Source of the DNA: Gnetum montanum
Lineage: Eukaryota; Plantae; Gnetophyta
Reading direction: 5' to 3'
DNA length: 64,000 nucleotides
NCBI GenBank assembly: GCA_015680685.1
Contig: MNCI01002402.1
Coordinates: 186,001-250,000, forward strand
This document shows, piece by piece, positions 8,995 to 60,500 of the stretch (position 1 is the stretch's first letter; every line of letters starts with the position of its first letter). A program made the position numbers and the translations under genes. Below the pieces are notes generated by a model that saw only the letters and a program-made list of their open reading frames with translations, was not told the origin of the DNA and ran no database searches.

Positions 8995-8999
8995 TTTTC

Positions 9000-35556: not shown

Positions 35557-35677
35557 AAGACTATTCTAGACACCCCATTTCCATTTTAGCAGGCCCTCAC
35601 ATGGACGTGGGGTCAACCTGTGCACCTATGAACCTCTTGGTTTACCATTCTAGCCACTGACATTTTCGATCACTATA
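35557..35677 (+). repeat. Remnant (last ~120 bp) of the 5' LTR of B
   Basis: Aligns by eye with ~52355-52477 and is followed by the decayed PBS TAGTAATAAAAGGAGGG. Confidence 0.8.
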
Positions 35678-36199
35678 ATTTTCTAGTAATAAAAGGAGGG
35701 AAAATTTCATTTCCTTCTATGGTCTTCATTAGTTTTTGTATTATGTGCTCTCTCCACCACAGTTGCTAGCTTCAGCCTAGCATACACTCAACAACCCTAT
35801 GGATTTGCCACTACAGTAACTAGATCTAAGGCTAGCATAGGTGTTATCTACAAACTAGTGGATGTAGACTAGACCCCATCAAAAATTCCCCTGAAACCCC
35901 ATTTGACAACCTCTAGAACCTACATCTTACACTTAACTAAATTTTGGGCACTCAAAAGAGCCTAGCTAGCTCTTGTTGTAGAGCATAGTTGGCTCTTAGT
36001 GTAGTGAGGATAGTCCCAGATTTAGCTATTTCAATAGCTTCTAGAGTTCATCATTTTTTCATCAATTTTACACTTAGTAATTTTCTATAATTTTTACACT
36101 TAGCTATTTTCTTACACTATCCATACTTAGTCATTTTTCTACCACTTTCATACATAGCTATTTCTTAAGCTAGCAACTTTTGCATTTCCTTTTTGCATC

Positions 36200-39100
36200 A
36201 TGAACCTTGAGCTACCTTTGACCTCTACTTTAAGTGCAATTGTTGCCCAACCCATTTAGCAAGAAATCTAGATTGACCATCCTACTAGTTCTACCATGGT
36301 GGGACAAAGGTAATCACTTAGGCTACACAGCCTACCTCTCAAGTGCATGATCCTAAATGAAGAGTAGTATAACTTTGTTTGTGTGAAGCTCCAAGGAGGC
36401 CTATTCATAGATTATCAAGAAATGAAGAACAAAAAAATTTATGAATTAATACATTGAAATGGAAGGGAATACTTCCCCTCCATTGTGGATTTCATTCCAC
36501 TTAGCAAGCCTTACCAATGGGTGCTCATCCAACTTGTCCAAGACAATAAGCATGAGGCAAGGATGGACTATGAGGAGCTCCTACAGGAAGAGTAGAATGA
36601 GTTCAAGGTCTTTTCAAAGCACAAGACCTCATACCATACCTCTTTTTGGTGGACAACCTCTACCTTTGTTCCTCCACACTCCCCACCCACTTATCTTCAT
36701 GGAGATAGTTATAAACCTAGTGTCTACCTTAGGTCTACACCTATGGTGATGAGCCATAATGCATAGTACAAACATCAAGATATAGCACATCCTATTAGCT
36801 TGCCCTTTTTCATACCATCGCAACCTACTCAATCCTCCTAGCCATTAATCATCATGCTGGTGTAATCCTATGTGCACACTGTGCACATTCTTCATCCACA
36901 AGTAACTCAAGTGTCGTACACCCCACCTATTGTGTTGGGCCCCTTCACAATGGCCCAACCCAAAAATATGTTGTGGGGCCTATCTGCTATGCCCATGACA
37001 TAGCAAACACAATGAGCATCGCACATGGCCTCATAACTTGTAGTTAAGTCATGGGCCACTCAAATAGCTCAGAGGGTAGCATAATCGATGCAGCCCACTG
37101 CAACCTCCTTGAGCTTAGATCAAGCATTCTAGCTCATCTAGACTCTAACAAAGGAGGTCAAGTGGCTCAAGGTCACCTCCTCAGAAATAGTACATGTGAT
37201 CGATTTCTACTAGGATGACCCGATCAGTCCTATAGTTCTACAACTAACAAAGCTTACTAGGGTTCCACTACCCCAATTCACCAAATACAATGGTGAAGAG
37301 AACCCCAATGCAAACTTGATGACCTTTTAGTTTGAATTCCTTCTACTACAAGCATGTCCACATGCCATTATCTGTGTGTTTTCCATGTCCTTGATTGACA
37401 AGGCATTGGATTGGTACCATGCACTTTAGAGAGCCTTCATCTCCTCTTTGGAGGATTTGCTTAGTTTATTCATCATGCACTTTAAGTATAACTTGAAGCC
37501 TAAGGCAACCCTAGACGAACTAATGCAAATTAAGCAAGGCCACATAGAGCTTTTGCAAAAATTCATACAATGCTAGAGCATGTTGCTCAATGAAATATAT
37601 GAGCCCATTGCAAAAACACACTTGTTGGAAATTTTCAAGGATGTAGTGAATGAATTTATTAACTCAAAGTTGTACTATTTATCCCTGCAATCCTTAAGCC
37701 AAGAATTTACTTATACTAAGAGCATTTAAGATGTGGCAGAGGCTAGTAAGGATTTGGCTTATGTGGCGTATAAGAACTTGCATGCCAAAAGGGACAAGGA
37801 CAAGGACAAGGACAAGGACAATGGCAAATAGGCAACCACAACTATGGCAATAGTGGCCAATGAGGCCAAGCTAACCAACACTAAACTAATGGCCAAACCA
37901 CCCAAGGCTTCAACCATCAACAAGGGTTCTATCTCCAGCACTATAGTAACCAACTAGCCTACAACATTAGTAGCCATGGGGCAAGCTACCCCAAGGTCAA
38001 ACTTTGAGCACAAGGATTGCTCAAAGTATACACCATTGCCCATCAAGACATCAAAACTCTTATACCAACTACTTAAGACTAGAAGAATCTATTTCAAGTA
38101 GATATCTAAGGAAGCTCACAAGAGGCATGATTGATACTATGAGCTCCTTAGGAATCACTCGGCTATAGCACTAAATGAGCCCTAGTCCCTAAACATTTTA
38201 GGCTAGATCAATTTTTCCACTATCATCAATTACCTTGACATGACATAGACTTTTTCATGGCTTTGCAACATGACATCTAATGCATGATTGATCAAGGCAA
38301 GTTGGTCCTTGATCCAACCAACCCAATTCACCCCCAAAACTAATCAATGAGGGTCTACAAGGATCCTCTAAATGCAAGTGGTGTAGGGTACACCATCAAC
38401 ACTATTAGTGTTGATGACAACTTAGAGCTAGCATAGTGGCCATTCATGGTCAATGTGCCCTCTGGTAGTACTAGGGCCCCCTCACCTTCCATAAGTTTAA
38501 GGTCTACCTTTTTTGTCAAAACACCACCTTGGGCACCCCTAACACCATTTGTGGTCAAGGTCCCATAACATGTTGTAGCAACAACAGTTTACTCGCCCTT
38601 TATCATAAGGATGCTGTAATGTGTAAACTCCTCACCTGCTTGGAGTTCAGTCATGGATCACACATCAACCCCTACTCACCCAAGGGATCATCTCGTAGGC
38701 AATGCTAGTAGAACATCTAAGTGGAAACCTAGGAGGCTTAACAAGTTCCTTACTAAAAAAATGCTTAGGTAGCACCAGGAGCAAAAGGAGCTAAGTCCAC
38801 CAAAGCCTATCCCTTGTCCTCTTTTCCCATGGCCTAGTCAACTAAGAATGCCACCACAAGTAACCAAAAATTGAGCACTAAGGCTCCAAAATAAGCAAGC
38901 CAATCCAAGCCCAAATCTCCTCCACAAGAGATTCATATCTTGGGCCACATGGAGGATATGAAGGCCAATAACATAGAAAATAGTGGCAAAGACTTTCTAG
39001 ATGCATTGACCTAGGTCAAACAAGCTCTAAAATAGAAGAACGCTACACTAAGCCTATACGACTTGATCATGACCTCCTATACCCACTATGAAGCATTGGT

Positions 39101-39940
39101 CCACATGTTGACCTCCATTCCTATTAAGGAGGACATCCTAATAGATGAACAATCCATCCATGTTGTGATGCTACCTCCTACACCACAAAAATTGAGCTCA
39201 ACGCCCCTAGCATTCCATGATGAGGCTATCAAGGTTGACCCTAAGAAGAGTTAAGTCATTACCATGTCATTGTTTATTAAAATCTGTATGGAGTAGTGTA
39301 GAATTTGCAAGGTGCATGTCAATGATGAACAGTAACAAACATAATCCCATACACTGTCATTGAAAAGTTGGGTCTTGCTAACCAAATTAAACCCACAAAG
39401 ATAACATTCCTAAATTCCTTTAATGGATCACACATTGTCATAACGGGAACTATCATAATAGCATTTGTGATAGGGGAGTAATTCCCCATCATGAAGGCTA
39501 CTATGATAGTTCCCTAATCTTCAACCTAATCTTGGATAGGCCCTAACTAGCCCAACTGTAAGTTGTCTCCTCCCCAATCCACCAAGAAATCCGCCTTCCA
39601 TACAAAGGTAGTGAGGTTATCATTTATGGTGACAATGTAGCCCCTCTCACCATAAATAACATAGACACAAAACAAGGGTCAAAGATGGAGTTCCCCAATG
39701 ATGTGTCTCCCATAAAGGATGAGGGTGAAACATGTGAGGTAGACTAACCTGAGGAACCAAAGGAAGCTAGTGACCTCTTGGAGGAAGCATTGTGGGTAGA
39801 ATTACCCTTCAACATAGTTGACAAAGGTCAAGGCAAGTACCACATAGTATTTTCTAGGCCCTACATGCCACCTAACCCACATTAGGTTAGGAACCAACTA
39901 TGAGAGTAAGGCAACCCCTTAGTCCAACATTTGCTAGGTG
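36200..39940 (+). pseudogene. gag: gag-protease of B
   Basis: ATG AAC CTT at 36200, YNFVCVKLQ, FTKYNGEENPNA gag core, knuckle at ~38210-38265 and protease KVHVND at ~39310. The 3' limit is approximate. Confidence 0.85.
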
Positions 39941-40179
39941 CCTACCTACCCCTAACTCTTGCATATCTCACTTGCATCTTGTTTGTGCATTTACATTTTG
40001 TTTGGGCATTTGCATTTTTCATTATTTACTTTATTACACATTTATTTCCCTTGTTTGTGCATTTTCAATTAGTTTAAGTTTCTTCTTATCATGTTTACTC
40101 TTTAGTAGTTATTAGCCTATGCATGAAAAACATGAATGTATGTAAAAATCATAAACACAAACTACAAAAACAAATATAC

Positions 40180-40455
40180 ATGGCCTAGAAAGACCTTAAA
40201 CTATCGCATGGCCCACCATGGCCTAAAACTGGTAACCTTCTTTACATCACCATGGCCCGAGAAGGCCTTAAGCTATCATATGGCCTGCCATGGCCTAAAA
40301 CTAGCAACACTTTTCCTTTTGATGCATATTTCAAAATGGCCTTAAACTACCACTAGGACCTAGAATGGCTTAAACTACCAACACATGCTATCAATACATA
40401 TGATCCAAAATGGCCTAAAACCATCATCATGACCTGAAATGGCCTTAAACTAGCA
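40180..40455 (+). repeat. Tandem array downstream of gag-PR in B
   Basis: Units of ATGGCCT(A/T)AAACT(A/G)(G/C)CA. Confidence 0.85.
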
Positions 40456-40675
40456 TTAGCTTGTAGTGGCCTAATGACATCAATTCATCATATTACTAGC
40501 ATCAAACATATAGCAAATAAACACAAAAATATACACATCATACACATCATATAGTAAAACATTCATTACATATCACATCAATAATAGTACATAACATAAG
40601 CATCGAGACCATGTGGCAAAAGATGTACAAAAATACAAAAAAAATGCCCAACAATAGGGCTCCATTAGGATATGC

Positions 40676-43600
40676 TCAACTAGTAGTACTAGGTGGGGGT
40701 GATGATCCTTCATTTGCTAGGACCTACAGCATTACCTAGTTCCTGTTGACAACACAATAATAAAAAAATAACAAATTAGTAAGAAAATTTACAATATAAA
40801 AACTAACATTGAAAGAGAAAAACAACACAAAAAACTAACCTGAGAGGATCCCACATAGATCATGTCTACAGGCAAACTATCAAGGCCCTCCTCCAAGCGT
40901 TAGAGGATCTTAGCCTCAAATAGTTGTGCACAGTCCCCCTGGCCAAAGTCAACCTCCACAAGGATCTTGCCTTTGTTCATGGTGGTCCATGTGGGTGGGT
41001 CCATGAAAAATGTAGCAAATGAAGCCTCTCCTAAGGGTGTGGAAATCTATCTCTTCAAAGAGCCATTGACGACTAAATGGTGAGCAAAAAACTCGTAAGT
41101 CTATCTCCCACCAAATGCCTCAAGGAACATCTCAAGGCAATAGTTCTCAATAAAATCTTCTTTGAGCTATTGAAGATATGTGTCTCATTCATACATGTAG
41201 TGGTGTTTGTGATTCTTTTGAGTCTACCCCCACCTACACACCTTTGCACTAAAGCTTTTCTAGTTCTAGTTCTTCTAAGTGAGCAAATCCATCTATAACT
41301 GCTACTCAATGATCTCTCTCATGGCCTCATTTTTTCCACAGATGGCCAACCAGTACCTAGCATATTCTATGTCTATGAATCAATAGGTATTGTATCCCCA
41401 TTATCAAGCCACAAGAAAGCAATCTTAGAATTGAAGGTCTTTGATCTTTGTGTCTTGGCACATCTCTCTCTTCTAAAATTCATGTATGCACTTCCACAGG
41501 TGCTTATTCAAACACTTACAAACCTACAATGCTTTTGCACTAGAAAGTGTGCATTTGTTAGTTACCTCACATACATAATGAGGCACTTGCTACACTTTAT
41601 GAGGAAACTCAAGGATGTTATCCACTTTGGCTACCTTGCTTGGATCCAAGCAAAGCTTGGAACCTATTGGCATATGTCAAGCAAATTAACTTTAGCCACA
41701 AACTAAGCTTTGAATTGGTAAAGCAACATAATTAAAACAACATCATGCATATACCAAGCTTAGAATATGCCTATTGTAGGTAGTCAACCATGTCCTCCGT
41801 GATGCCCTTCGTGAAGGCAAACTTGTTGGGGATTTCTACCCATGGCTTCATGCAGTAGGTAGACATTGACATTGCATCACTAGCAATACATCTGAGGTTG
41901 CAACATAACAATGCACTTAGCAACTATATATCCAAAGATGCTAAAGAAGAAGAGCAACAACAAATGGAAATCTAAAGCACTTACCTTGCAAGCCCTTAGA
42001 TGTGAGAGTATGGGATTCACCTAGCTACATGCTATCAAAAAGGTGGTTAAAATCACCCCAATCGAGGTGAAATAGCCCCTCCTCCTCCAACCACTAAAGG
42101 GTCTCTATTGCCTCATGCACCTCCTTCTCACGTGCTTCCCTCTCCTTAGCTTGAGGAGGAGCCTCCTCTACTACTACTTTTGCAGCTGCTCTGACAACCC
42201 TCTCTTCTAATTTTTCCAAATTATAAAGATAACCCATTACTACAATTAGAATACATTAGATCATTAGTACAACATAGCAAAAAACATAAAAATGTAAACA
42301 TAAAAAAATACAAAATGCATGCATGCAATAAAGTACATATACCAACCTACGACATCTATGTGTAAGATGGGAAGCTTGAGGTAGATTTTCTTTCCATTTA
42401 ACCTTCCAACCTCAAGAGTATCCTTCTTTGTAGGGCATGGCCTCTTAATCTTCACTTTGGATGGTCCCACCATCACTAAAATATAGCATTTAGCCTTGTC
42501 CACATCCCTAGTAACAACTGGTGGACCCTCACCTGTGCTCTCACATGAATAGTGTGACTGTCACAGGAGACCTCAAGTTGTTACTAAATAAAACTTATTG
42601 AGCCCCTCTAGGGGATCTTGTGCACGAGTGGTTGTGAACATATGCCTAAACCAAGGCTTCAAAAGCTACTCATGATCCTATACAACCCACTACCTACTAT
42701 CACAAACCACCAAGAGCTCCAAAAACCTTTGCGGATACCATACAAAGAATGCAAAGTGCACATGGGACCTCACCTAGAGGTTGAAGTGTAGCTTAGTGAT
42801 CTTTTTGTGTAGGCCAGTGGAAATGTAGAAGGCCCAATTGAACCTCATACCTTCCTCTAGTACCTTCTTCATCACCTACACCTACTCCACCCCAAGGATT
42901 TTCCCTTAGGAGAACAACTTCGGGAAGGCATGGGCACGAAAAAGAGGGTAGACCTCCTGGACCTCAAACACAAGCACATCTTTGATGGGGATGCCTTTGT
43001 CAGATTGAGTGGCTTCTAACTAGCCCTCAATCTCTCCTCTTTGATCCACCTCCCTATTAGCCTTTTCAATAATCAATGGGTCATCAGTGGAAAGGCCAAT
43101 GAGGTTGGTAAAGAAGGCCTCATTGAGGTCTAAAATTACCCTCACACCATGAATGCAAGTGATGAAATGGTTGAAATTTTTACCAAAAGATTCTATGATG
43201 GTGACCATTTTGGCTACTAGAATGATTGGGCTAAGAGCCAAGAAAAGGTCCATCAACCTAGCATACATGAGCATATTGGTCAATGCCTTTGAGGCCTAGT
43301 GGCACAACCAATGCTACACCCCCTCCACATCACCATACTTCATGATGAGGATGGCCTTAGTGTAGCATGTGATGATCACCATCACCTCTCTTAAAGCAAC
43401 TACCACTGTAATAAAGGCAAGAAAAACAACATTAACATTATGCAAAGGTAAAACAACAAACATGTGTGAGGAAGCATAGGAGCTAAAATGATAAATGTTT
43501 ACATAACAAATGGTGTGCGGGATGGAGGTGATGGTGTAGGTATCTTTTCAAAGCTAAGCTCATCACTAGCCCACTCCTCATCTAGCCAATCATGGATCGT

Positions 43601-44688
43601 GTACCACTCAAACACCCTTAGGTATCAAGTAGGGTAGGACTATAGATCAAATCCCACCTACTCAAGTACAAGCTCTTGAAAGTTTAGACTAGAGGAGAAT
43701 ACCTTTAGGGTACTAGGATTCAAGGCAAGAGCATCTACCTCATCATGGAGACACTTCTCATCAACTCTAAATCTAGCAATAGGCATGAGAAGTTAGCAAC
43801 TTAGCATGAGCCAATAGCAAGGAACACAATGTAGAAACCATAAATGCACTTACCCTCTAGTGTAGTATACCATTCCATGTCTATTCTCAAACAAAGTATG
43901 CATGTGCAGAGCAATAAAGAGGATATTTCTCTTGTTGTAGCAAAAGAACTCTACCATCTACCAAATCCTAGATAAGGGCCAAGAGCTCCTAGGACCTCTA
44001 CCCTAACTACCTGCTTTATCATCATCAGTAGTGGGCTCATTAGACATAAACCTTAAAATGCCTTGGTTGGCCCCAAACAACAATGTCTTTGTGTTGACAC
44101 TTGTAGCCTCTACCACTAAGTGTGACCACATCATCACACTAAAGCCCTGCAGTAAGAATTCTAGAAACTCATGCACCTCTAGCTAGAACCACACTAGCTG
44201 ATAACCCACCTACATACCTTGTGTAGGCATGTTAGGCATAGGCTTTCTTGTGTAGTAGAGAATGTCAACAAGCTCCACAATAACTAGGATGGGCTTTAGT
44301 ATCTCCTTACAACCTCAAAGCAACAAAAAAAGTGTTAGTATACATTAAATGCAATTGTTGACAAAAAACATTTATTAAGTTAAACATAGCATAAACCTGC
44401 AACCCTATGCATGGCCCTAATGATGGCCTGTGGCTTCTCCACCGATGGCTACATCCATGATAAGCCCTCAAATCCTCACAAAACCCTAACCCATGTGTGC
44501 TAGCAAAACCCTTTCTCCCCATTTGCACACCTCTCCTTGGCTAGAAAAGGAGAAAGCATAGTTAGAGTACCTAGCAAATGGTGGCACCCTCTACTCCTCC
44601 ACATGTGCCTACAATAGGCGACCTAGTGTCCATTCTCCCTCATTCACATTTTCCAACTAGGGTGTAGGTGTCCACTTTGGCATGTCAT
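40676..44688 (-). pseudogene. Spliced accessory gene of B, 8 exons
   Basis: ATG at 44688, minus-strand donors at 44570, 43853, 42342, 41984, 41754 and 40839, stop at 40676-40678. ORFs 43020-43283 and 42264-42503 are homologous to the A, E1 and H copies. Confidence 0.85.
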
Positions 44689-45049
44689 ATTGGTGGAAAC
44701 TATGCTATTCACAAATAGTGCACTACGGTCTAAAATTTTAAGTTTTTTAACTTTGAAAATGATAGACTTACCCAAGGTGAAATGCACTTTTATATCCCTA
44801 GGGACCAATTAATAATTTACCAACCCCAAAACTATGCCCAACACTATTTATATGGAGGAGAGCATAGTTAGTCTAAAGTGTAGTTGGGTGGGAGCATAGT
44901 CAACTAGACTTAGAAAATTTTTTGATTTTTCTAGCTACCCCAGACTTAGAAAAATTTTAAGTTTTTCTCATTTCTCAATGAATGCCTAGTCCAACTTCAT
45001 GTAAAAACACTCTCCAACCTTGCCAAAAATGATACATCTGGTGCATACT

Positions 45050-45170
45050 ATGGTCTTCTAAGACCTTAAAGTAGCACACCATAGTTTGCTAAGACCTTAA
45101 ACTAGCACTCCATGGTTCGCTAAGACCTTAAATTGGCACTCTATGTCCTAACAGGGTCTAAAACTAACAT
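45050..45170 (+). repeat. Short array upstream of RT in B (equivalents at 25365-25430 in A and 57395-57445 in H)
   Basis: CTAAGACCTTAAA(C/G/T)T(A/G)GCAC three to four times at about 31 bp spacing. Confidence 0.85.
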
Positions 45171-45324
45171 CAACATGCTTACTTTATTTAACAATACATA
45201 TGCATACTTAGGAAAAAATGTTATTGCATTTATTTCCTTTATTTTATGCATAATGACTTCATTAAGACAAGTGTGGCTTAATGTTTTTTTGGTTGTTTTT
45301 GTAGGATTTTCATAGGAATACAAC

Positions 45325-48300
45325 ATGACTATGTACAAGCATCTTCATTTACCTTTGGCCCTCATTGGGTCCCATGGTGATTTCACACAATGCATTGATT
45401 CACAATGCCTAGACCTTGAGCCCATAGCCTATGATGAATACATAACATCTATAGAGGCACTGCTAGACTAGCCAAACCATCTAGTTAAGGCTTTAGATCT
45501 AGATGCAAGTGATGTCACTGAGGATCCCCTTGTTGAAATCCCTATAGCAACACCTAGTGATGAGGCAAAAACATTGAAACTTAGTTCTTTATTAGAGCCT
45601 CAACATACCCAAAACATTGCTATAGTGCTCAACAAAAATATTAACGCATTTACATGATGTTATGAAGACATGCCAAGCCTAGATCTTTGTGTGGTGCAAC
45701 ATAACATAAGCCTCGATCCTAGCATTAAGCTAGTTGAGAAGAAAGCACATAAGGTTAGGCTTGAGGTTACATTGGTAGTCTATGATGAATCACCAAGCTC
45801 TACAAAGTTGGTTTCATCTGGGCAATTAACTATGCAGACTAGGTCTTTGACATCATGGTTGTACCCAAGAAAAATGAAAGTATATGCATTTCCATAGACT
45901 TTTGGAACCTAAACAAGGTAACCATTAAAGATGATTTCTCATCACCTAGCATTGATCAATTGGTTGATACAACAACTGGTCATGCCTTTTTATCCTTTAT
46001 GGATGGGTTCTTGAGGTACAACTAGATTCAGATCAACGTAAAGCACTAGCTCAGTACTACCTTTATGACTTCTTGGGGTACATTTTGTTATACCATGATG
46101 CCTTTTGGACTTAAGAACATAGGAGAAACTTATCAACATGTCATGATGTACATCTTTAGTGGCTACATGTTAGGTTTGCTCAATGATTATGTTAACAACA
46201 TAGCAGTTAAGTCCAAAGTAGCACACAATCATGTAGATGACTTGGACCTTGTGCTCAAATGTTTTTTGAAACATGATCTTAGGTTAAACCCCAAGAAATG
46301 TATTTTTAGTGTTAAGACAAGCCAGATGCTAGCTTTTGTAGTATCCAAAGAAAGCATACGCATTGACCCCAATAAGGTTAAGGTCATTATCAACTTAACA
46401 CCACTGGCTAACCTTAAGGAGCTACAAGGATTGTAGGGTAGATTACAGTTCAGATGCAGGTTTATCACATGGTTAATTAACAATTTGCAATCCATGTAAC
46501 ATTTGCTCAAAAAATGAGTCTACTTTGATTTGATGGCTCAATGCCAAGAGGCATTTGACAACCTTAAATAAGAGCTGGCTCAACTTCCAATGCTCTGCCC
46601 TCCACAAGGCGATAAACCTTTCTACATCTACCTTTCTACCTCTGATGTGTCCATTAATTTTTTGTTTTGCCAAAGGCAAGATGATGGCCTAGAGGTCCCA
46701 ATATACTACATAAGCTATGCATTGGTTTCCTATGAAGCAAGGTATAACAATGTGAAAAATAATTACCTTGCCTTGGTCTTCACACTCAAGAAATGGAGGC
46801 ACTATCTTTTCCATAGTTAAGTTAACATCATCTGTAAAAGTAACATAATCCTAGAAATTACCACAAACATTTACAAGAGTAGTTGCATTGCATAATGGAA
46901 GGCAATAATAGTAGAGTTTGACCTACATTACGTTGCACAAGCCTCAATGAAAGATCAGGCAATAGCCATGCAACTCATGGCTTTACCTATGAATGATCAA
47001 GCAACAATAGATCCAAAATTCTTGGATGAGCATGTCAATAGCATCAACCAAGTGCCTAAAAACTTTGATGCAATCCTGCACTTTGATGGTGCTTCAACTT
47101 TTCAAGGAAGTAGCACCACTACCATTATCACATTTCCCTTCAAGGAGATTAGACCCTTCACATATCATTTTATGTTCTCATGCACTAATAATGTGGTGCA
47201 GTATGAAGATCTCCTCAAAGGTATCCTAGTAGCTTGCAACTCCGGAATACAAAACATAGTAATCTGAGGTGACTCATAGTTAGTGATCAACCAAGTCATA
47301 GAGGTCTATGCTTATAAAGCCCAACATTTAAAACCTTATTGTGACTTGGAAAAACACTTGCTTAAATAGTTTGTAACCACTAATGTTCAATACATTCCCC
47401 AGAACAAAAACACCATAGTGGACGCTTTAGCAACAATAGCCTTAAGCATTTCACCTGACATGTTTCCTACATTCTCAACCTTGATGGAAAATTACACTAT
47501 ACTTGTCACACAAACCACTAACATCACATCCATAGCCGCAGTTAGCAAAACCCAAGCAATGGAATGGTATGATGACATTAATACATACCTTCTATAGGAC
47601 AACATCTAACCATTTCCCAAAAGGATGCAATGCAAAAATGATCATGGTAGTATGTTGTCGTAGGTGATAGCACCTTGTGTTGTAGATCCTATGATGGCAT
47701 ACTACTAACCTATGTAAGCAATAGCGAGGCACAAACAATCATTGAACAAGTCCATAAGGGAATCTGTAAAGGTCACATAGCAACTAGGGCAATGGTGGCA
47801 AAGATCAGACACTTAGGCTACTACTAGCCTTACATGGAGCATGATTGTGTCTCCAAGTTCAAAATGTATGATATTTATCAATAACGTGACAACTTAATGC
47901 ATGTTCCATTAACTAAACTACATACAACATAGATCATGTAGCCATTCCAACATTGGGGGTTGTACATCATTAAACCAATAATGCCTAAGTCCTCCATAGG
48001 GCATAGCTTCATTATAATCACAACTCAATATTTTACCAAGTGGGTTGAGGCTATTCCCCTTAGGAAGAAAACATCACAATAGGTTTGCAAATTTGTCCTT
48101 GATAACATAGTAACCTATTTTGGTTTTCCCATGACCATTGTAATGTGTAACATGCCATAGTTTAGTAGTGCTAAAACAAAGGATTTTTATGAGTGCTTTA
48201 GCATTAAACATTTCTTCTTATTGTTGTACTACCTATAGGTGAATGGCTAGGTGGAGGCCACAAACAAAGTCATTGTCAACCTTCTAAAGAAGATGCTTAG

Positions 48301-48796
48301 TAGCAACAAGAAGTAATGGCATGAGTAATTAGTATATGCACTCTAGGCCTACCACATAACATGTAGAATAGCAACAAGTAATAAACCATATAACCTTGTT
48401 TATGGGTTTGAAGCAATTTTTCCTCTTGAGTTGTAGGTTTCATTGCTCCATGTAATCCTCTCAAGCTTCATTGAAGAGGCTCAAAGCGATGAGTTAAGGA
48501 CTTTGGACCTCAATTCAATAGAGGAGGAGTGCATGCAGACACTTGATTGCATCAAGTGGTACCAAGAAAAGTAATGGCAAAAGCACCATCATAATCAACA
48601 TTAATGCCTGATCAAGAAAGGGGACTTAGTTCTCAAGGCTATTCATGAACCCACAGACAAATTCTCAGCCAACTAAGAAGGGCCTTTCTTGGTCATCAAG
48701 GCCTACAACAATGGAGCGTTCAATCTTGTTGACCACGATGGCAATGAATTTGCTAATCCAATGAACCACTCATACTTCAAGCCTTACTATGCCTAG
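45325..48796 (+). pseudogene. pol: pol of B: RT, RNase H, archaeal-type RNase H, integrase
   Basis: WGTFCYTMMPFGLKN, KPFYIYLSTSD, LHFDGAS...CTNNVVQYEDLLKG...GDS (aRH), integrase YFTKWVEAIPL and EGPF motifs; stop at 48796. Confidence 0.95.
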
Positions 48797-48839
48797 TATG
48801 TAGCACATCTTGACAAAGCAAGGTGGTAGGCACCTCTAG

Positions 48840-49215
48840 CTTGCTATGACTATAAACTAGCACAAATAGTCTGCTATAACAATAAATTAGCATATATAGT
48901 CTACTATGACTATAAACTAGCACAAATAATCCACTATGACTATAAACTAGCACACCACTTGTCCCCTATGACATTAAACTAGCACCCAAACCTCTAGTCT
49001 ATTATGACTATAAACTAGCACAAATTGTCCTTGGGTTATGATGTTAGACTAACAAAGTAGCACATCTGCTACAATGTCAAACTAGCATGCAATAGTCTAC
49101 TAGGACTATAAAATATTATGCATCATAGTTTTCCAAGACCTTAAACTGGGTCCATGATCTACTAGGACCTTAACTAGCAAAGCATCTGGTCTACTAGGAG
49201 CTTAAACTAGGTTCA
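48840..49215 (+). repeat. TAAACTAGCA tandem array downstream of integrase in B
   Basis: About 12 units of GTCTRCTATGACTATAAACTAGCAC, with a period of about 31 bp. Confidence 0.9.
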
Positions 49216-50822
49216 TAGTTCATCACACATAGTTTTGTGGATGAGTGAGTGAGAATACTTCCAACTGTCCCCATTTCCCTCCTCCCTACTCCTATCTATC
49301 TACATCTCATGGATGCGGTGGGGACATTGTAGCTACATCTCATGCGTAGGGCGGGGACACTGTAATTCTAGAATGGATTTTCTATCATTAGTAGAGGCCT
49401 ATAGGACATTTTTAGTGTTACCATCCTTGGAATTTTGCTAATCTTTTAGAGCTCCTATCATTGGTGCCAACACTACTAGATTCAGGTGACACTTGTAGCA
49501 CTACCAGCTTTGGGCATTTTGCTAGTGCTTTGAGGTCTTGTCATCAGCACCATCCCTTGGAGTAGTTGTAGCATTATGGCCTCCTATCATTTTGCTGATT
49601 TTAATGGGCTCTTACCATTGCTTGGGCTTGAAAGCACTTGTAGCATCATGACCCTTGACTATTTTGCTGGTCTCCTAAGCTCCTATCAATAGTGTGGACT
49701 CTCAAGCACCTAGAGCATCATTGCCCCTAGCACCTTTACTAGCTTTTCAAATACTTGCAATTGGTTCACTTGTTACAAAATTTGTAGCACCCTCACATCT
49801 GGTAGTTTATTCGCATCTCATGCTGCATGGTTATTTTCTTTTTTTTTTCCCTAAGTTGTTTTTGCAAGATGAAGCCTCAAAGGTAGTCATGAAGAGATGC
49901 ATCTCATAGTAATGGAAAGTCATCACATTTTCTCTTATGTGCATGATTAGACTAGTCAAGCCACTCAAAAGTGCACATCCCTATTACACTGTTATAGCCT
50001 ACTTGCATTTACCCCTTTCATGTTGCATTCCCTTTCCTTCCCCTACATTACCAAGCTTGAAAACCATTTTGATGCACATGGCACCCTTTAAGTCAACCAC
50101 AAAACCCATAATGGATGCAACATAACTCAATCTATGGGGAGCCTATGTGGGTTGGTCAAAGCCCATGTAGATGTAATCCAAATCATTCTGAGGAGGAAAA
50201 ACCTATCCTACAAACATGACACGGTTGCCTTAAAGAAAAATTCATTAGGTGGCATGTAGTCCACCTAATGGAATGTATCTAGCAACTAGCATTTAGAAAT
50301 GTGTAGAGCCTAAAGTAGGTTTTTCATAGTCAAAATGCAAAGAAAAAAAAAAGCAAATGGGGTAAAACATATCCCCAAGAAGAAATTAGCAGAGCTGCAA
50401 TTTCACAACTAGTCTAACCTTGAATCAATGTTGATCCTCTCATAAGCATTCCAATGGGAGATTATAATTTTAGGGGCTAGCCATCTTGGTGCCATGGATG
50501 TTGACTCTCTCATACGCATTTCGATGAGAGGTCACCATTTTGATGGCAAGCCATCTTGGTACCTTGATCTCTATCAACCATGCTGACTTTGCATCTTGCA
50601 GCATGACATCCTACTTGCATTTTTCTTTCCTTACCATTCCTAACACATTCCCTATATCCTTTACCTTCAACATACCATAACCTTTAGCACTCTTGAGAAT
50701 GGTGCAATGATATCCAATTGAGTACTGATGAGCAATGTTAGTGCTAGACCTGCTAAGGTGTTTTGCGTTCTTTGTTGGCATCTCTTGGGCCACTCCTTTA
50801 GATGTCAACAAAGAGGGCCCAA

Positions 50823-52477
50823 TAAAACACCACCAAATTTTCACCATTGTGTGTTGACTACAAATTCATCTAAGTATCAACATAAGGAAATTTTCTTCTA
50901 AGTGTTGAGACTACACTCCCCACTACTAGTACTACACTCTAGAGCATAGTCAGTATAGTTGACACAAGTAGTTCAGAATTGCAAGATTTTTCTAAGTGTG
51001 AATAGTAGCTACAAATTTTTCTAAGTGTTGGACTACACTCTAGAGTGTAGTCAGTGTAGTCAACACACCAATGGTCAATTTTGCATATTTGCCTATGTGT
51101 CAAGATAAAAGCTGTCAAGCTTGGTGAGCATGGAGGAAATAGTTCAACAAATCTTCTAACTACTGGACTACACTTTCTACTATGCACCAGAGTGTAGTTA
51201 GTGTAGTCTACATGAGGATAGCAATTTTGCAAGATTTTTCTAACTACCAATACTATGCTCTCACTACCAAGACTATGCTCCAAAGCATAGTTAGTGTAGC
51301 TAGCATTTGAGCTCAAGTTTTGCAAAATTTATCTAATGGTTGAGACTATGCTCTAGAGTGTAGCTAGTGTATTCATGTAGAACTATCTTCAAAAGCCTTC
51401 AGAACTCAACACTGGCCTTCATCTCAACTCCAACACTCCTCTAGCAAGTAAGATTAGCAATTTTCATTTGTTTAGCATCCCCCATATGTCCCAAAATTGT
51501 ACTTACAGTTAACATCACTTGGGATAGTGGATAGTGTAGTCCTAGAGTGTGGTCTCCAAAACTACACTATTTTGCATTATTTTTAAGTACGTGGTAGTCT
51601 ATTTGGCACTAGCACTTGCAATCTTGGCAATGTAATCACAATTTGGTAGTCTCACAAGGTTCATTAGAGCACACCAGTAAAACATTGTTTGCTTCAATGG
51701 GAACATAGTTGAGTGTAATGTAGTCTCAACTACCCCTCAACCATGTGGCACCCGATCTACCATTCATAGCAACCCTAACCCTATAAATACCCTAGTACTC
51801 TACATTTTAGTGATTGGCAATTCTTGCATTCAACTAGCATTTTGGAATTTGGCAAACTTAGAGTGCATTTGGTATTTGAGCAAACTCCAAGCTAGCATTT
51901 GGCATCATTACACACCATAGCCCACTATAGGCCACCGTAGCCCATTATAGCCCACTACAGCCCACAAGACATTACAACAACCAACCCAACAAGCAAGCTC
52001 TTCATAGTATATGTCAATCTTCATAGTCTAAACACCCTAGGACTATGACTATGCTACCTACTATGCCTATTCATACACCACATACCTCCTCACCTTTCTT
52101 GCAGTTAACTATGCTCCCCTCATTTGGGGTGGTGCTACTTTCTCTCTCACTCACCTCCCATGCATTTTTTAGCATTTTCTCTTGGATTTTAGCATTTTAC
52201 CTACATTTTTGCTATTTTTTTCATATACTCATGCATTTGCACTATAGTTTTGCACTAGAAACTTTAACTACGCTCACCCTCATTGACAACATAAATGCTA
52301 CAAACCCCTAGCATTTGTTCTACCTCTACACTCCATAAGTCCCAGTTTGATTGATAAGACTATTTTGAGCACCCTATCTTCATTTTTAATAGGCCCTCAT
52401 GAAAACATGAGGTCAAGTTGTACATCCAAAAACCTCTTTGTGTATTAGTCTAGCCACTAATGTTTTTGGTCCCTACA
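50823..52477 (+). repeat. 3' LTR of B (about 1.65 kb)
   Basis: Follows PPT AAAGAGGGC. Starts TAAAACACC (decayed TG) and ends CCCTACA. AACCCTAACCCTATAAATA at ~51771-51789. Reverse-complement similarity to the LTRs of A. Confidence 0.9.
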
Positions 52478-52789
52478 AGGCTTGGTAAGTAAGATGAAGT
52501 TAACAAAGGAAGGGACACACTCCCATCTATTTTGATGGATGACCTCATAGCCATACTTAGCTTCCATGTCTATGCAGTCCACAAATAGGTCCACTTGGAG
52601 CTTCATGCAAATGAAATTGTACTACTTAAGGTTGAGCATTGTGTACTTAGGTTTCTGGTTGCACAACCTAAGGGATTTCCTTTGTCTTGCCATGGTAGGA
52701 TTGACGATGTGGTCAACCTGATTTTCCCATTGGGTGGGTATGACCATGAGTATTCTTAGAATGAAGGCCAAAGGCTACTTAGGGTTCAT
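52478..52789 (-). pseudogene. gag: gag of A, 5' fragment separated by the insertion of B
   Basis: ATG AAC CCT at 52789 and a YNFICMKLQ motif, homologous to 36200-36510. Confidence 0.8.
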
Positions 52790-53328
52790 GATGTGAATGG
52801 AAAAATGCAAAAGGCTACTAGTTGCAAAAGAAAGAAAATGGGTGACTTTTCTAATTCAAAAAAATGGCTAATTGTAGAACTTGCAGAAAAAATGTCTAAG
52901 TATAGGAACTGCAAGAAAATGACTAAGTGTGAAATGTGTAGAAAAAATGGCAACATGTAAAAACTGTGAAAAATGGCTAGCTATAGAAGCTACTAAAAAT
53001 GGCTATCTTTGAGACTACACTCACTATGCTAAGAGCCAACTACACTCTTTATGTTGAGAGCCAACTACACTCGCCTGAGCACCTAGAATTTAGCCAAGTG
53101 TTGAATATATGCGCTAGGGTTGCTATGTGGGGTTCTAGGGGAATCGACAATAGGGTCTAGTCTACACCCATCGATTTGTAGATAACTCCTAGGCTGCTCT
53201 CAGATCTAGCTATTGCCATGATAGGTCAACAAGGGTGTCGATTCTGCATTAGCTCAGAGCTAGCAATGGTAGTGGAAAGAGCATCCAAGACAACAACCAA
53301 TGAAGATTATAGAAGGAAATGGCACCAA

Positions 53329-53345
53329 CCCTCCTTCTAGTGCCA
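53329..53345 (-). promoter_or_regulatory. PBS of A (tRNA-Asn type)
   Basis: TGGCACTAGAAGGAGGG on the - strand, 6 nt from the LTR end. Confidence 0.85.
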
Positions 53346-53351
53346 AAAAAT

Positions 53352-55074
53352 TATAGAGACCAAAAACATCGATGACTAGAATGGGAACATCGAGAGGTTC
53401 GTAGGCACATAGCCTTGACCCTACATCCACGTCAGGGCCTACTGGAGGTAGAGACAAGATGCCCAGAATGGTCTTTTCAATCAAACAGGGACTTACAGAG
53501 TGCAATGTCATAACATTGTTAAGTGCTTACATGATAATTGTAGCATCAATAATGTTAACAAGGATGAGTGTAGTGAAGGGTTTCCCCCAAAAATAGAGGT
53601 ATCAACATACAATTATGTGCACATAGAAATGCTAGAATGTAAATAGAAATGCTAAAAATGCATGCAGAGAGAGTAAAAGATAGAGTGGAACCACCTCAAA
53701 TAGGGAGAGCATAGTTAACTACAAGAAAGATGAGGAGGTACACGGTGTACAAATAGGCATAGTAGGCAACATAATCACAATCTTAGGATGAATAAGTTAT
53801 GAAAACTAATGTCCATCATGAAGTTTGAGCTTGTCAGGATGGCCACCATGATGCCCCATGGGCTACAATGGTCTATGGTGGTGTGTAAAGGTGTCTGTTA
53901 GTGTACTAATTCTTACCCCAAACTGCTCTTGCGAAGGTGCTCTAACGAGTTTGTCAACCAAACTACCAGAATGCCAATTGCCCTTCAAATTTTGCTAACC
54001 CCTAGAACATAGCAATGGGGTATTTATATGGTTAGGGTTATCGTAAATCATGGATTGGGCACTACATGGCAATGGGGTTGTTGGGACTACCCTACACCCA
54101 ACTATGCTCTCTACTAAAGCAAATAGTCTTCTACTCTAATGTGCTCCAATGGACCTGACAAGGCTTCTAGACTATGACTATGCTATCCAATTACATGTGT
54201 GAGTGCTAAGCAAACCACGATGTACCTAAAAAATGCAAAACAATGTAAGTTTGGAGACTACTCTCTAGGACTATGCTATCAATTATGTGAAGTGGCGTCA
54301 AGTGTAGGTATAATTTGAGAATAAATGGGTGTGCAAAAAGAAATGAAATTTGTTGATCCTACTTGCCAAAGATCTAGGAGTTGATGTAGATGTCAATGCT
54401 ACATTCTAGAGGCCTCTAGAGGTTTTTTTACATGACTCACTTGAGTACACTCTAGAGCATAGTCTCAATAGTTAGAAAATTTTGCAAAAAAATGCATTTC
54501 CATGCTAATTACACTCTAGAGAGTAGTCCTAATAGTAGGGAGCATAGTCCTAGCACTTGGGAGAAATTTCTATAGAAATTAGGCTTCCAATTGACTATGC
54601 TTTAGGGAAGTGGAGAGGATAGCCTCAAAAGTTAGAAAAAATCACAAAAAACTAGGCCTTGAAACTATCTCAATGCTTAAAAAATCTACCAAACTATTTC
54701 TTCCATGTCAACTATGCTTGACTACACTCCAATGTAGTGGAGAGTGTAGTCTTTACCAAACTATTTCTTTCATGCTCACAAGGCTCTACAGCCACTAGCT
54801 TAACACTTAGGAAAATTTTCAAACTAGCCATTTCTATGTTGACTACACTAGGTCCCAACATTAGAGAGCATAGTCTCAACACTTAGAATTTGTAGCTACT
54901 ATCTTGATGCTTAGAAAAAATCTTGCAAACCTAGACCTATGTTGTAGACTACACTCTAGAGCATAGTCCCAATAGTGAAGCACGTAGGCCTAACACTTAG
55001 AAAAAATTATCTTCTGTTGACACTTAGACAAATTTGTAGTTGAGATGTAGTGGCCCAAATTTGTTGGTGATTCA
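53352..55074 (-). repeat. 5' LTR of A (about 1.72 kb)
   Basis: Collinear with 17883-19623; starts TGAATCACC on the - strand. Confidence 0.92.
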
Positions 55075-57054
55075 TTATTGACACCTCCTTGGTGTTAATC
55101 TTATCAACATTCCAGTCCTCATCAAACCAGTCGTAAATCCTACATTGCTTGTATGCCTTTGGATAATGATTGATGTAGGCCTCAAAATTGTGCCCTAGCT
55201 ACTCAATCACAACCACTTGAACATTTGTGCTAGATGAGAATACCTCTAAGGTAGTTTAGGTTAAGGCTAGAGTGTCTAAATCATCATGCAGACCATCTTC
55301 ATTAACTTTGAACTTGGCATCAACCATAGAACCATTAGCAATTTAACATGAACAAATAGCACAAAACACTGCAAGTGCCATAGAAGCACTTAATCTCCAA
55401 TGTAGTAGAATATTCTAGGTAGGTTCTAGAATAGAGTGTGCACCTACAGTGCAACAAAAAGGATGTTGTTCTTATTATAATAAGTAAACCCCATCATGTG
55501 ACACACTCTGGATAGCTAATGAGCACTCGTGGGACCTCTGCTTAAGCCTCCTAGGCCATCAAAGCTGCCAACAAGCTCATCTGAGATGAACTTTAGAATG
55601 TTTTGATTAGCCCCAAGTAGTAACATCTCAGTGATAGCACTAGCAACCTTAATTGCCAAGTGTAACCACATCATACTAAACTACTACAATAATTAATCCA
55701 AGAACTACTAGGCTCCTAGCCAAAACCACATCACCTAATGATCCACTCACATGTTTAGTGCAAGCATGTTGGGGATGGGTTCACTCATGCAACACAAGAT
55801 ACCCAAGAGCTCAACTACGACCAAAATGGGCTTCAGCAATACCTTGTAGTCATCAACCAATAAGCAAAGTGTTAGTATACATGCATAGATGCAAATTTTG
55901 ATATACATACAATAAAATACTAACATAAATTAATAAACTATGTAATTTTGACAATAAACAAAAGGGGCCTTATGAGTGTAGGACATCAGTTAACTCATTG
56001 AATGCCTAGCACTCATTAGGGTACAACATGTTTACATTTTTTAGGTTTAACATTGTGCATAATTAATGAAATTTTAGCTAACTTTGGACTACCCCAACTA
56101 TGCTCTAGAGCATGGAGAGTGTAGTCCCAAAAAATAGACATTTTGGCAAACACTTAGAAATAACTACACTCTCAATGCATAGAGAGCATAGTCTTAGCCA
56201 TGGTAGTGAAGAGTGTAGTCTCCATGCAACATTGTACCTATCATGCCTACCAAGTGCCACTATGGTCCTCTCCCTTCTCTTACTATTGCCACAGGATGCA
56301 ATCCATAGTAACCCTAGTGTGAGCAGAAAACACAAGGTACACACTAGAAACCCCAGAGCATAGTCTCACGGGGTTGAAACTCTCATGCATGGAAGAGGGA
56401 AATAGCCAACAAGTTAGAAGTGTCATGTGGCAAAGCCCACAAAACCTCTAAATCATGCCAACAATGCCAATATCCTTGGGCTTGTGGCCTAGAGCATAGT
56501 TCATGGGGTTGTCCCTACAAAAATGAACAAAAAAGAAAAAAATGAGGGGGATGAATAGATAAATCTCCCCCTTGCCCCCCACCATGCTAGTCTTAGCATC
56601 TCCCACCAAATGTCGATGGTAGTCGTGGCCCCTGTGATCGCACCACAAAGCATAATCTACCAAGCCCTAGATCCAAAACATAAAAAAAGAGAGAGAGAGA
56701 AAATAACATAAAACCCTACCTCCCTGCATCAAATACATAGTCGAACCAGTGCCCAAAATCCCAAAAGAAGCAAAACTCCTCCCTACCACCATGTTGCACC
56801 ACAAATGGCACATGGCCACATTGGCTACCATCACAACGGGGTGTGCATGTGGTGTCATGGGGCTAAACTCTTGAAACCCTTATAAAATTCTAAAAAATAG
56901 AAACAAAGACAAGATGGAGAGTGTATTCAACATACTTGGTCGATGCCTAGAGCCTCCTCTCCTCCATGCATGCCTACAGTAGGTGGCTTAGCATCCTCTT
57001 GTCCTTAGCAATGTTTGTCAACCCTAGGTGAAGGCATGTGCTATGGCACATCAT
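55075..57054 (-). pseudogene. Accessory gene of H, 5' part (exon 1 57054-56936, intron 1, exon 2 ~55845-55393, start of exon 3)
   Basis: VLLKPILVVVELLGIL at ~55800-55845. Exon 1 is homologous to 25786-25904, with a donor at 56935. Confidence 0.82.
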
Positions 57055-57585
57055 CTTTTCCTACAACTACACTCTTCACTAGTAGCAACAACAGAAAGCA
57101 ACAACAAGACTATGCTCTCCACATTACAATAAAGGTAAAAATAATGAAGTTACCATGGTAAATTCTTATTTATATACTCTCACAGGGTTATTAATGATCC
57201 ACCAACCTAGGACTACACTCACCACCAAGCACCCTACTACCAAGCATGGAGAGCATAGTTGGGTGAGAGCATAGTCAAACATCTTGAGCCCAAAACCAGG
57301 ATTTTTCACTACCCTACAAATGCGCAAGTTAATTCCATTCTCAATCATGACTAACCCTCCTTGCAATGGCATGTTTGGCACATTCACAACCTTCCAAGGC
57401 CTAAAACTAGTGTGGATATAGCCTACCAAGGCCTAAAACTAGCAAAAACATGTTTACCTCCCATAGCAACTTGCATGCATGCTTAATCAAATTTCATTGG
57501 ATTGATTTTTCTCATTCATGCATATTAACTTTGTCAAAATAGGTACCACTTGATGTTTTTCTAGTTTATTTTGTAGGAAGATGAC

Positions 57586-60500
57586 ATGGCTATGCAGGAG
57601 TAGAGCTTATCATCCTTGGTCCTCACAAGGCCTTACGATGATATTAAGCAATGCATTGACCCTCATTGCCTAGACCTCGATCCTATAACCTACAATGAGT
57701 AAATAGCATCCATAGAAGCACCACTAGACTGGCCCAACCATCTAGTTAAGGCTCTCAACTTAGAGGCAAGGGACATCACAGAGGATCCCCTTGTCAAGGT
57801 CCCTATGGCAATGCATAGTGGCAAGGCAAGAACACTAAAAATAAGCTCCTCACTAGAACCCCAACATTCTCATGACATCACTAAATTACTTAATGATAAC
57901 ATCAAATAATTTGCATGGTCATACGAGGACATTCTAGGCCTAAATCCCTAGCTAGTCCAACATAACATCATCCTTGATCCCTGCATCAAACCACTTAAGC
58001 AGAAAGCATGCAAGGTTAGACTTGACATGGTGTTGGCAGTCTGTGATGAGGTAACCAAGCATTACAAAGCTAGTTTCATCCAAGCTATTAACTATGAAAA
58101 CTAGATCTCCAACATTGTAGTTGTGCCCAAGAAAAATGAAAGTATATGAATTTTCATAGACTTTCGAAACTTAAACAAGGCAAATATCAAAGATGACTTC
58201 CCATTGCCTAGTATTGATCAACTAATCAATACAACTGTCATACATGCCTTGTTATCCTTCATGGATGGGTTCTCAAGCTACAATCATATTAGGATCAACC
58301 TAGAGCACCAACTCAGTACAACCTTCATGACCTCCTAGGGTACGTTTTGCTACACAATGATGCTTTTTGAACTAAAGAACGCAATAGCAACATACCAATA
58401 TGCAATGACGTACATTTTTAGCGATTACATGCTAAGTGTGCTCAATAACTACATAGATGATATTCCAATTAAGTCCAAAGTGGTCCAAAGCCATGAAAAT
58501 GACTTAGACTTAATGCTTAAATGCTACCTAAAACACAAGCTTAGGTTAAACCCAAAAAATATGTTTTCAGCATTAGAACAGGTAGGATGCTTGGCTTATT
58601 AGTATTTAAAGCAAGTATATGCATGGATCCTAACAAGGTTAAGGCCATAACCAATTTAGCACCACTAGCTAAGCTTAAGGAGCTATGAGGGTTACAAGGT
58701 AAAATATAATTCATATGCAAGCTTATCGCTTGGTTAACTAACAAGCTACAACCAATGTAACATTGCTTAAGAAAGGAGTCCACTTTTAGTGGACTACTTA
58801 ATGCCAATAGGCATTTGACAACATTAAGTAAGAGCTAGCACAACTACCTACAATTCACCCTTCACAAGTAGATAAGCCTTTATACATCTACCTTGCCATT
58901 TCTGACACATCCATTGCTTCTCTACTTTGCCAAAAGTGAGATGATGGCATAGAGGTCCTAGTCTACTACCTAAGACATGCATTAGTAGCCCATGAAATGA
59001 GATACAATGACATGGAGAAGTATTTTCTTGCCCTAGTCTTCACTAAAGAAGTGAAGCATTACCTTTTCCATAGCTAGGTTAACATCATTTGCAAGAACAA
59101 TGGAATTCAAGCTATAACAACAAACATCTACAAAAGCAGTCAATTGCATGGTGGAAAGAAAAAATAGTGGAATTTGGCCTGCATTATTTCATGCAAGCCT
59201 TAATTAAAGGTCAAGCAATATCTACACAACTTACAACTTGACTGGTAGATGATCAAGCTACCATAGACCCTGAGTTTCCAAACGAGCATGTTAGTAATAT
59301 TAGCTAAGTGCTTGACAACTATGAGGCACACCTACATTTTGATGGAGCTTCAACCTCTCAAGGGGGATTGTTGTTGCTATTATCACATTTTCCTCCAAGG
59401 AGATCTGACCCTTCACATATTGTTTCACATTTCCTTACACCAACAACATGGTGAAGTATGAAGGTCTTCTCTGATCCAAGGTGATTCACAACTAGTGATC
59501 AATCAAGTAACAGAAGTCTACACCTGTAAAGCATAACATTTATAGCCTTACTACAACCTAGGAACACACTTGCTCCAACACTTTACAATTGCTAATGTCC
59601 AACATGTTCCCCAAAGTAAAATTGCCATTGCTAATGCACTTGCACCATTATCCTTAACATATCACCTAGCATGTTCAACACATTATCCACCTCGATGATG
59701 AATTGCACTACACCTATCATGCAAACCATTGAAGATGCATCCATAGCCACAGTTAACACCACCCATGCAAAAGAGTCGTACGATGACACCATGGTGTACC
59801 TCCTACAAGGTGAGCCTCCACAAAACTGAACTACTACTCAAAAGGACACAACACCCAAACATTCGTAGTAGTATGTCATCGTAGGTGATAACAAGTTTTG
59901 TCGCAGATACCATGATGGCATAATGCTAACCTACATAACCAAACATTAAGCAAAAACAATCATTGAGCAAGTCCACAGAGGGCTGTGAAGAGGTCACATA
60001 GCACCTAGGACAATGGTAGCAAACATCAAGTGACTAGGCTACTATTGGCCTTACATGAATAGTAATTACATCTAGAAATTCAAAACATGCAACACTTATC
60101 ACTGGCGTAGCAACTTAAAGCACATGCGAGTAACTAAATTGCATATAATGCAAATCATGTGGTCATTCCAACACTGGGGCTTAGACATCATCAAACCCAT
60201 AACACCTAAGTCCTTCACTAGGCATAGCTTCATAATAACCACAACGGAATATTTCACCAAGTGGGTTGAAGCTATTCCCCTTAGGAAGATGACATCACAG
60301 CAAGTTTGCAAGTTCATGTTACATAACATAAAGACCTATTTTGACTTGCCCATGACCATAGTGATGAATAATGGATCATAGTTAGCAGCATTGAAACAAA
60401 AGCCTTTTGTGAGCACTTTGGCATTAAACACTCATTTTCATTACCATACTACCCTAAGGAAAATGGCCAAGTAGAAGCTACCAACAAGGTCATCATCAAC

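Follow-up and report, generated by a model that had tools for sequence, protein, structure and literature searches.

The usual assumption for LTR retrotransposons is that their enzymes enter the particle as a Gag-Pol fusion. In Ogre elements, PR and RT lie 274 bp apart on average, splicing joins them in frame, and an extra ORF lies in sense orientation 5' of gag (PMC6317226, PMC4408406). The antisense ORFs of Retand, Tat III and Tat V are located between pol and the 3' LTR and encode PMD or TRP28 domains (PMC11963269, PMC7264820), and the extra ORFs of plant LTR elements are described either upstream or downstream of gag-pol (PMC7264820, PMC11963269, PMC12786077). In foamy viruses, Pol has a spliced mRNA and an AUG of its own and is packaged via the genomic RNA (PMC6669543). 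A spliced subgenomic message is also made by barley BAGY-2, but for an env-like ORF and not for pol (PMC7264820), and Candida Tca2 has a minor promoter at the gag-pol junction, with Pol following the LTR promoter (PMC2194720).

The window (i.e. the whole stretch of 64,000 nt analysed here) is a nest of old, decayed LTR elements, which are 60-80% identical to one another in a self-comparison. A sequence-only reading of it had proposed that pol is uncoupled from gag-PR and starts with an ATG of its own, just after a splice acceptor.

Elements of the window and their placement

By sequence (RT-RH-aRH-INT) the elements are placed in the Tat clade of Ty3/gypsy. The order gag-PR-RT-RH-INT, with LTRs and a PBS, was found in the window family by Pfam and alignments (the 5' LTR of B being truncated, and no PPT being located), and the Pfam order in B (gag, RT, RH, aRH, INT) is that of Tat structure 1 of PMC10508981. 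Element B (plus strand, from its 5' LTR remnant at 35556 to 52478; Table 1) has a collinear sibling on the minus strand, A. Element H retains part of the spacer and pol, and D, which has decayed least (CpG o/e 0.43 vs 0.10-0.13), retains gag-PR and the antisense gene, its pol being expected outside the window. Copy E2 (minus strand) is without pol and without the antisense module. Element G (52477-55077, minus strand) contains a 3' region, LTR, PBS and 5' leader in a single run, which resembles a tandem-copy junction with a common LTR. Two related LTR-like pieces of another family (11600-12130 and 16630-17240), with a TATA box and 24-nt tandem arrays, split a copy of the antisense gene (10724-11599 and 17243-17782). 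The window family is large, with 3,130 contigs of one DNA run matching a stretch of 421 nt (45170-45590).

An RT tree of 57 rows (3 window copies, 36 of the 120 proteins listed and 18 of 79 loci), which contained no curated reference set, puts the window RTs in a group of their own (100/100), next to Cryptomeria and Taxus proteins with weak support (96/79) and inside a 100/99 clade of 40 rows together with aRH-bearing seed-plant proteins; the nearest protein by tree path is Cryptomeria P0042. The position beside the Cryptomeria and Taxus proteins suggests a gymnosperm host. The window RTs fall outside the 100/99 clade that contains the Lathyrus and Populus rows, which we take to be the angiosperm Ogre clade, i.e. 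in this tree the RT of the window is not an angiosperm Ogre RT. None of the 79 loci, which came from a metagenome scan (RT identity 32-46%), belongs to the window family, because none matched PR or the antisense gene.

Table 1. Coordinates of the features discussed, as positions in the window
Feature	Position	Strand	Remark
5' LTR remnant of B, last ~120 nt	35556-35677	+	matches 3' LTR ends of B, A and G
PBS-like 17-mer of B, decayed	35684-35700	+	better preserved in G, E and D
gag-PR frame of B, decayed	36201-39885	+	stop aligned with A (32314) and D (4780)
Candidate PR-tail donor, phase 1	39830-39838	+	within G-E/K-Y linker motif, 50 nt ahead of gag-PR stop
Short-repeat array downstream of gag-PR	40140-40460	+	similar arrays ahead of acceptor and past INT
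Antisense multi-exon gene of B	40828-44311	-	between PR and RT
Antisense gene of D, best kept	408-3951	+	minus strand of element; short U-rich GT-AG introns
Conserved non-coding block with palindrome	44540-44900		antisense TATA-like words and antisense donor-like site 44771
31-nt tandem array ahead of acceptor	45058-45145	+	
Branch motif, U-rich tract and predicted acceptor of B	45278-45304	+	branch A at 45281; AG ends at 45304
AG-to-ATG interval of B	45305-45324	+	second AG ends at 45315; indel-prone; stop in pol frame
Branch motif, predicted acceptors and ATG of A	25207-25256	-	AGs 25231 and 25220, ATG 25209
Branch motif, predicted acceptor and ATG of H	57550-57588	+	AG 57576, ATG 57586
Predicted acceptor and ATG of E2	13576-13640	-	AG 13592, ATG 13582, then INT stop region directly
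pol frame of B	45325-48796	+	ATG, ~66-codon leader, RT, RH, aRH, INT
RT of B (Pfam)	45867-46328	+	
RH of B (Pfam)	46536-46919	+	
aRH of B (Pfam)	47184-47435	+	RVT_3
INT core of B (Pfam)	48002-48214	+	
3' LTR of B, start not fixed	51380-52478	+	TATA box ~51783 in 4/4 LTRs

The gap between gag-PR and pol

According to the sequence-only reading, gag-PR ends 5.4-7 kb ahead of pol in B and A, which agrees with the 5,439 nt (B) and 7,104 nt (A) measured from the gag-PR stop codon (39883-39885 and 32316-32314, respectively) to the ATG of pol. D, A and B have this stop at aligned positions, 13-15 codons past a W-x-x-x-P-F...Y-x-I-V motif, and each sense frame of the gap contains 101-164 stops. Since every frame is interrupted more than 100 times, neither frameshifting nor readthrough on unspliced RNA can account for Gag-Pol, as had been claimed, and the uncoupling of pol from gag-PR is supported. 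A continuous PR-RT frame was looked for and found in none of the window copies, all of which are decayed.

The gag-PR frame of B probably starts at the ATG at 36201, judging from the alignment of B with G and a similar site in D, and its Retrotrans_gag match (37376-37600) lies under the curated cut-off of Pfam. Upstream of this capsid match, an N-terminal domain of the gag frame (36201-36620) is conserved in B, G, E and D. In B and G, the PBS and the gag ATG are separated by a repeat-rich leader of ~500 nt, and a sense extra ORF 5' of gag, as in Ogre, was not found there. Comparison of the gag leader with the region upstream of pol gave a likeness above all 30 shuffles in just 3 of 12 pairs.

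Within the gap lies the antisense gene, placed behind PR in D, A and B, and ahead of pol in A, B and H. Across D, A, B, H and two additional fragments its protein is 31-40% identical, and being conserved over all of these it is a fixed feature of the family and not a private insertion. The first exon of the D copy gives a weak NIF/HAD-phosphatase match (E=0.0045, below the Pfam cut-off), the central exon matches no Pfam family and has no homologue among 7,523 candidates (with a pLDDT of 33 for its predicted model), and the last exon resembles a coiled coil by eye. As this gene is oriented opposite to the genomic RNA, its introns would not be lost on reverse transcription. One short repeat family (the two arrays of Table 1 and 48844-49230) flanks the antisense module and also follows INT.

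The predicted splice acceptor

In all four copies for which it had been claimed (B, A, H and E2) a tract and an AG indeed precede the ATG, and the positions given for AG and ATG proved right throughout; the AG with a near-constant spacing, however, is the proximal one, 9-10 nt from the ATG. Two AGs lie 20 and 9 nt ahead of the ATG in B and 21 and 10 nt ahead in A, and in both H and E2 the AG of Table 1 lies 9 nt ahead; the distance from the distal AG varies (20, 21, 9 and 18 nt in the four copies). With a home-made acceptor and donor score, based on plant splice-site frequencies, the AG ahead of pol ranks first among the 353 AGs of the spacer in B, first and second among 463 in A, first among 166 in H and, with a weak score, first among 30 in E2. 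Of all AGs in the window on either strand (8,623), the acceptors of B, A and H take ranks 3, 5, 6 and 7. A YTRAY branch motif lies 24-25 nt upstream of the acceptor in A, B and H, and in four aligned regions (both strands) the pol acceptor is the only one scoring at least 6 that is conserved in three copies. Top rank and branch motif support an acceptor ahead of pol as a predicted site; it seems that this AG would be a real 3' splice site, at which splicing probably takes place. The two top acceptor scores of the window belong to 18149 (minus strand, in the LTR of A), which is not conserved in B or G, and to 56515 (minus strand, in the antisense leader of H).

Copy E2 retains the PR tail, one repeat array, the tract, the AG and the first 7 nt of pol, after which the INT stop region follows. 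It is probably a deletion derivative that arose via repeats and microhomology, an origin as a retro-spliced copy being ruled out by the tract and AG that are still present. The loss of its antisense module falls within the short-repeat arrays. A consensus donor-like AAG/GTAAGC covers the codons just past the INT stop in E2 (13553-13545, minus strand) and in A (~21726, minus strand), and E2 has an acceptor-like site at 12943; a 3' intron or an extra 3' exon is possible.

The ATG and leader of pol

The pol frame of A opens with MTIDKNLHPPLVLT. A core of ACATG(A/G)CTA is present in 4/4 copies, with a purine at -3 in all of them, at a local background of 52 invariant columns out of 117 ungapped ones and a chance of 0.18 that a random point has a Met no more than 7 codons away. 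When copies with a non-conserved ATG or acceptor were looked for, both turned out to be present in all four.

Among A, B and H, the 20 nt from AG to ATG contain 2 indels, the following 423 nt none, pol 15 in 3,466 nt and the stretch ahead of the AG 4 in 105 nt; the 11-nt gap of H in the AG-ATG region sits between short direct repeats. The pol rate predicts 0.09 indels in 20 nt (Poisson P=0.0035, post hoc and from three copies), and compared with this rate the interval looks untranslated and resembles the stretch ahead of the AG; it may well be a 5' UTR.

Downstream of the ATG, the first 65 codons contain 0-2 stops, versus 5-12 in the other frames. In leader codons 23-66, H differs from the sites shared by A and B at 5/34, 0/37 and 13/33 of codon positions 1, 2 and 3, respectively, and codons 1-22 show a weak periodicity (7/17, 4/18 and 6/17). 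The pol leader is under coding constraint. No homologue of the 66-codon leader was found, the matches covering chiefly the RT-proximal part. At 45395-45455, over a C-I-D/N-x-x-C-L-D/N-L motif of the leader, the depth of DNA contigs peaks at ~25,000, compared to 5,000-12,000 downstream, which would reflect either strong conservation of this motif or a segment that non-autonomous derivatives also contain. Further downstream in B, the RVT_1 and rve matches are below the curated Pfam cut-off, and the aRH match (E=4.8e-10) lies between RH and rve, with the D-E-D-D positions visible by eye.

Candidate splice donors

The PR-tail donor is of the GC type in B (39833) and of the GT type in A (32366), at orthologous positions, and is the top of 497 sites in B and of 711 sites in A; in D, there is no donor at the matching place. 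The site at 44777 is the sole sense donor that scores at least 2 in all three copies compared (1 conserved sense donor in 631 columns vs 0 in 7,412 control columns; one conserved donor was also found on the minus strand of pol). It overlaps the antisense donor-like site in the palindrome, where the TATA-like words face the antisense gene, and no sense TATA was seen upstream of it by eye; the 528 nt from here to the acceptor contain 34% T. The palindrome may instead be retained for the antisense donor. In the U5 of the LTR, TAAGT is present in 5/5 LTRs (at 52336 in the 3' LTR of B), ~140 nt from the LTR end and preceded by a G in 2/5, and D has a donor-like site at a similar place, although TAAGT may instead be a polyadenylation element. 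Three further donors were rejected: 51587 (kept in 4/4 LTRs) lies upstream of the TATA box, 45271 is too near the acceptor, and 39886 sits after the gag-PR stop and gives no fusion.

RNA and DNA reads

Four RNA runs gave 289, 121, 1,691 and 474 reads on 35600-50000, mostly less than 90% alike, and no spliced junction was found among these reads of low depth from diverged relatives. On the 421 nt of 45170-45590, three runs gave 18, 10 and 4 reads, and none of these 32 has a joint or a loose end at the acceptor. The reads at the acceptor lie on its upstream side and cross the AG, at a depth of ~1. The RNA reads are too few and too divergent to be evidence on splicing either way. An RNA pile at 42279-42315 consists of poly(A) tails, two reads that join 40452 to 45112 link repeat arrays, and the strand bias in runs X10 and X11 is indistinguishable from that of intronic copies. 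Of the DNA contigs listed, 2/8 cross 45284-45456 free of gaps, and no indel reaches a frequency of at least 10% among the 3,130. Among 40 of the 115 variant rows, the ranking of which is unclear, none falls at 45313-45347, and this is not taken as conservation.

How pol may be expressed

The layout is real and its mechanism of expression is unproven. Gag-PR and RT-RH-aRH-INT are kept as separate frames 5-7 kb apart, and the reading we put first, at about an even chance, is that Pol would be translated from the ATG at 45325, probably its own start, on an mRNA spliced at the predicted acceptor 45304 or 45315. The first-choice donor for this mRNA, in itself unlikely, would be 44777, which gives a 528-nt leader intron behind an internal promoter common to the antisense gene; a donor in the LTR U5 is quite unlikely, and so is the PR-tail donor followed by stop and restart. 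Pol would then enter the particle in trans and subsequently be cut by the Gag-borne protease. Two models had been left open by the sequence-only reading, and the window tests lean to the own ATG (through the indel contrast and the 4/4 core), while an Ogre-type giant intron is still a contender through the position of the best donor, which A and B share. Prior knowledge favours a fusion of the Ogre type, whereas the evidence of the window favours initiation at the ATG. Against the latter it counts that a fusion solves packaging, that splicing produces a fusion in Ogre, the closest precedent to have been tested, and that P0306, a relative, has a non-Met at the position aligned with the pol ATG.

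With a giant intron, which we consider a real possibility though short of an even chance, a share of the genomic transcripts would be spliced from 39833 to 45304 to yield an in-frame Gag-PR-Pol, the 5.5-7.1 kb intron would host the antisense gene, and the ATG would be an internal Met. Besides being the top spacer donor at one place in both A and B, the PR-tail donor is of phase 1, which fits the 20 nt from distal AG to ATG in B. The gap-free DNA contigs and the lack of frequent indels point the same way, as do the splicing of Ogre itself (PMC6317226, PMC4408406), Cryptomeria P0042, which has a continuous PR-linker-RT with a W-x-x-L-x-F...G-E-Y motif in common, and the N-termini of P0045 and P0306 from another Tat clade, where the protein hints at a phase-1 acceptor. 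On the other hand, as the copies stand the fusion would lose the frame in A and, in B, run into a stop codon 12 nt ahead of the ATG, the four copies have four differing distal AG-ATG lengths, D is without a PR-tail donor, and the kept context of the ATG is left unexplained. In addition, the letters of the PR-tail donor are the codons of a protein motif that also occurs in the continuous Pol P0042, and the donor differences between A and B are complementary, as CpG decay gives, so that the high scores may be by-products of decay. Alternative donors could let initiation at the own ATG and the giant intron coexist.

It is improbable that pol is expressed without splicing, i.e. from an internal promoter near the ATG, with the U-tract and AG left over from an ancestral Ogre-like intron or belonging to a U-rich element of the UTR. 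The few RNA reads upstream of and across the AG would suit this, as would the minor promoter of Tca2, but unspliced reads are expected regardless (from genomic RNA or intronic copies), and branch motif, tract and AG are kept at a fixed spacing in copies that are ~30% apart. Very improbable is an artefact in which nested insertions or chimeras in this decayed, truncated nest parted PR from RT, with AG and ATG there by chance, given that A and B are collinear from gag through the 3' LTR, the spacer has no LTR-like sequence, and the antisense gene keeps its place after PR and ahead of pol.

Returning to translation from the own ATG, we tentatively propose that a Tat lineage of seed plants gave up the Gag-Pol fusion: a protease-less RT-RH-aRH-INT would be made from its own spliced mRNA, a bidirectional internal promoter would be common to pol and the intron-bearing antisense gene between PR and RT, and Pol would be loaded in trans, converging on foamy viruses. 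A stand-alone pol, if true, would mean Gag-independent loading of Pol outside foamy and hepatitis B viruses, in a plant family of very high copy number, and the question why Tat elements shifted PR onto Gag would become directly testable. Read conservatively, the locus would have an Ogre-like intron, ~20x longer, with a spliced antisense gene inside it between PR and RT. Elements with such a layout risk being mis-annotated as fragments. In the literature searched, to which subscription papers did not belong, neither an antisense gene between PR and RT nor a separate pol mRNA was found for a plant element, although the supplements of PMC6317226 and PMC10508981 may still show such structures.

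Comparison with known systems

Among other Tat proteins, the clade beside the Victoria proteins (P0037, P0039, P0041, P0232, P0045 and P0306) has a Met at one aligned position in 5/6 predicted proteins, ~109 residues before an F-A-W motif (108 in the window), and 4 of the 5 Met-bearing proteins start there by choice of the gene caller. In two proteins of this clade, the stretch upstream consists for ~60% of F/L/S/I (background 26%), as a translated U-rich tract would give. An acceptor followed by an ATG may recur in Tat, a lead that comes from protein sequences. Five Lathyrus gene models run through the pre-RT region, with no Met at what we presume to be the Ogre junction.

As in Ogre (Tat lineage IV), Gag-PR and RT-RH-aRH-INT of the window are in two frames with splice signals in between, and aRH is placed between RH and INT (PMC6317226, PMC4408406). 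Unlike in Ogre, the gap measures 5.4-7.1 kb with an antisense multi-exon gene inside, and a conserved ATG opens pol; a short PR-RT intron was not found in A or B, and a short gap only in the pol-less E2. With the 'retroviral' structure 1 of the gymnosperm Tat J/K the window shares the domain order (PMC10508981, PMC13468544), but Cryptomeria P0042 runs PR-linker-G-patch-like-RT in one frame (the G-patch being assigned by eye), and a long PR-RT spacer is not described in the text of PMC10508981 or the available part of PMC13468544. Retand, Tat III and Tat V likewise have a conserved antisense gene and tandem arrays in an internal region of several kb (PMC11963269, PMC7264820). In the window, by contrast, the antisense gene lies between PR and RT, bears introns and matches neither PMD nor TRP28 in Pfam; an antisense TRP28 ORF before the 3' LTR was not found either, as no frame scanned matches PF04195 (the 3' region being scanned as two ORFs). 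Foamy viruses, finally, are retroviruses with env, in which Pol includes PR and the acceptor lies in gag, whereas in the window PR is carried on Gag, and the likeness between the two is a functional analogy only.
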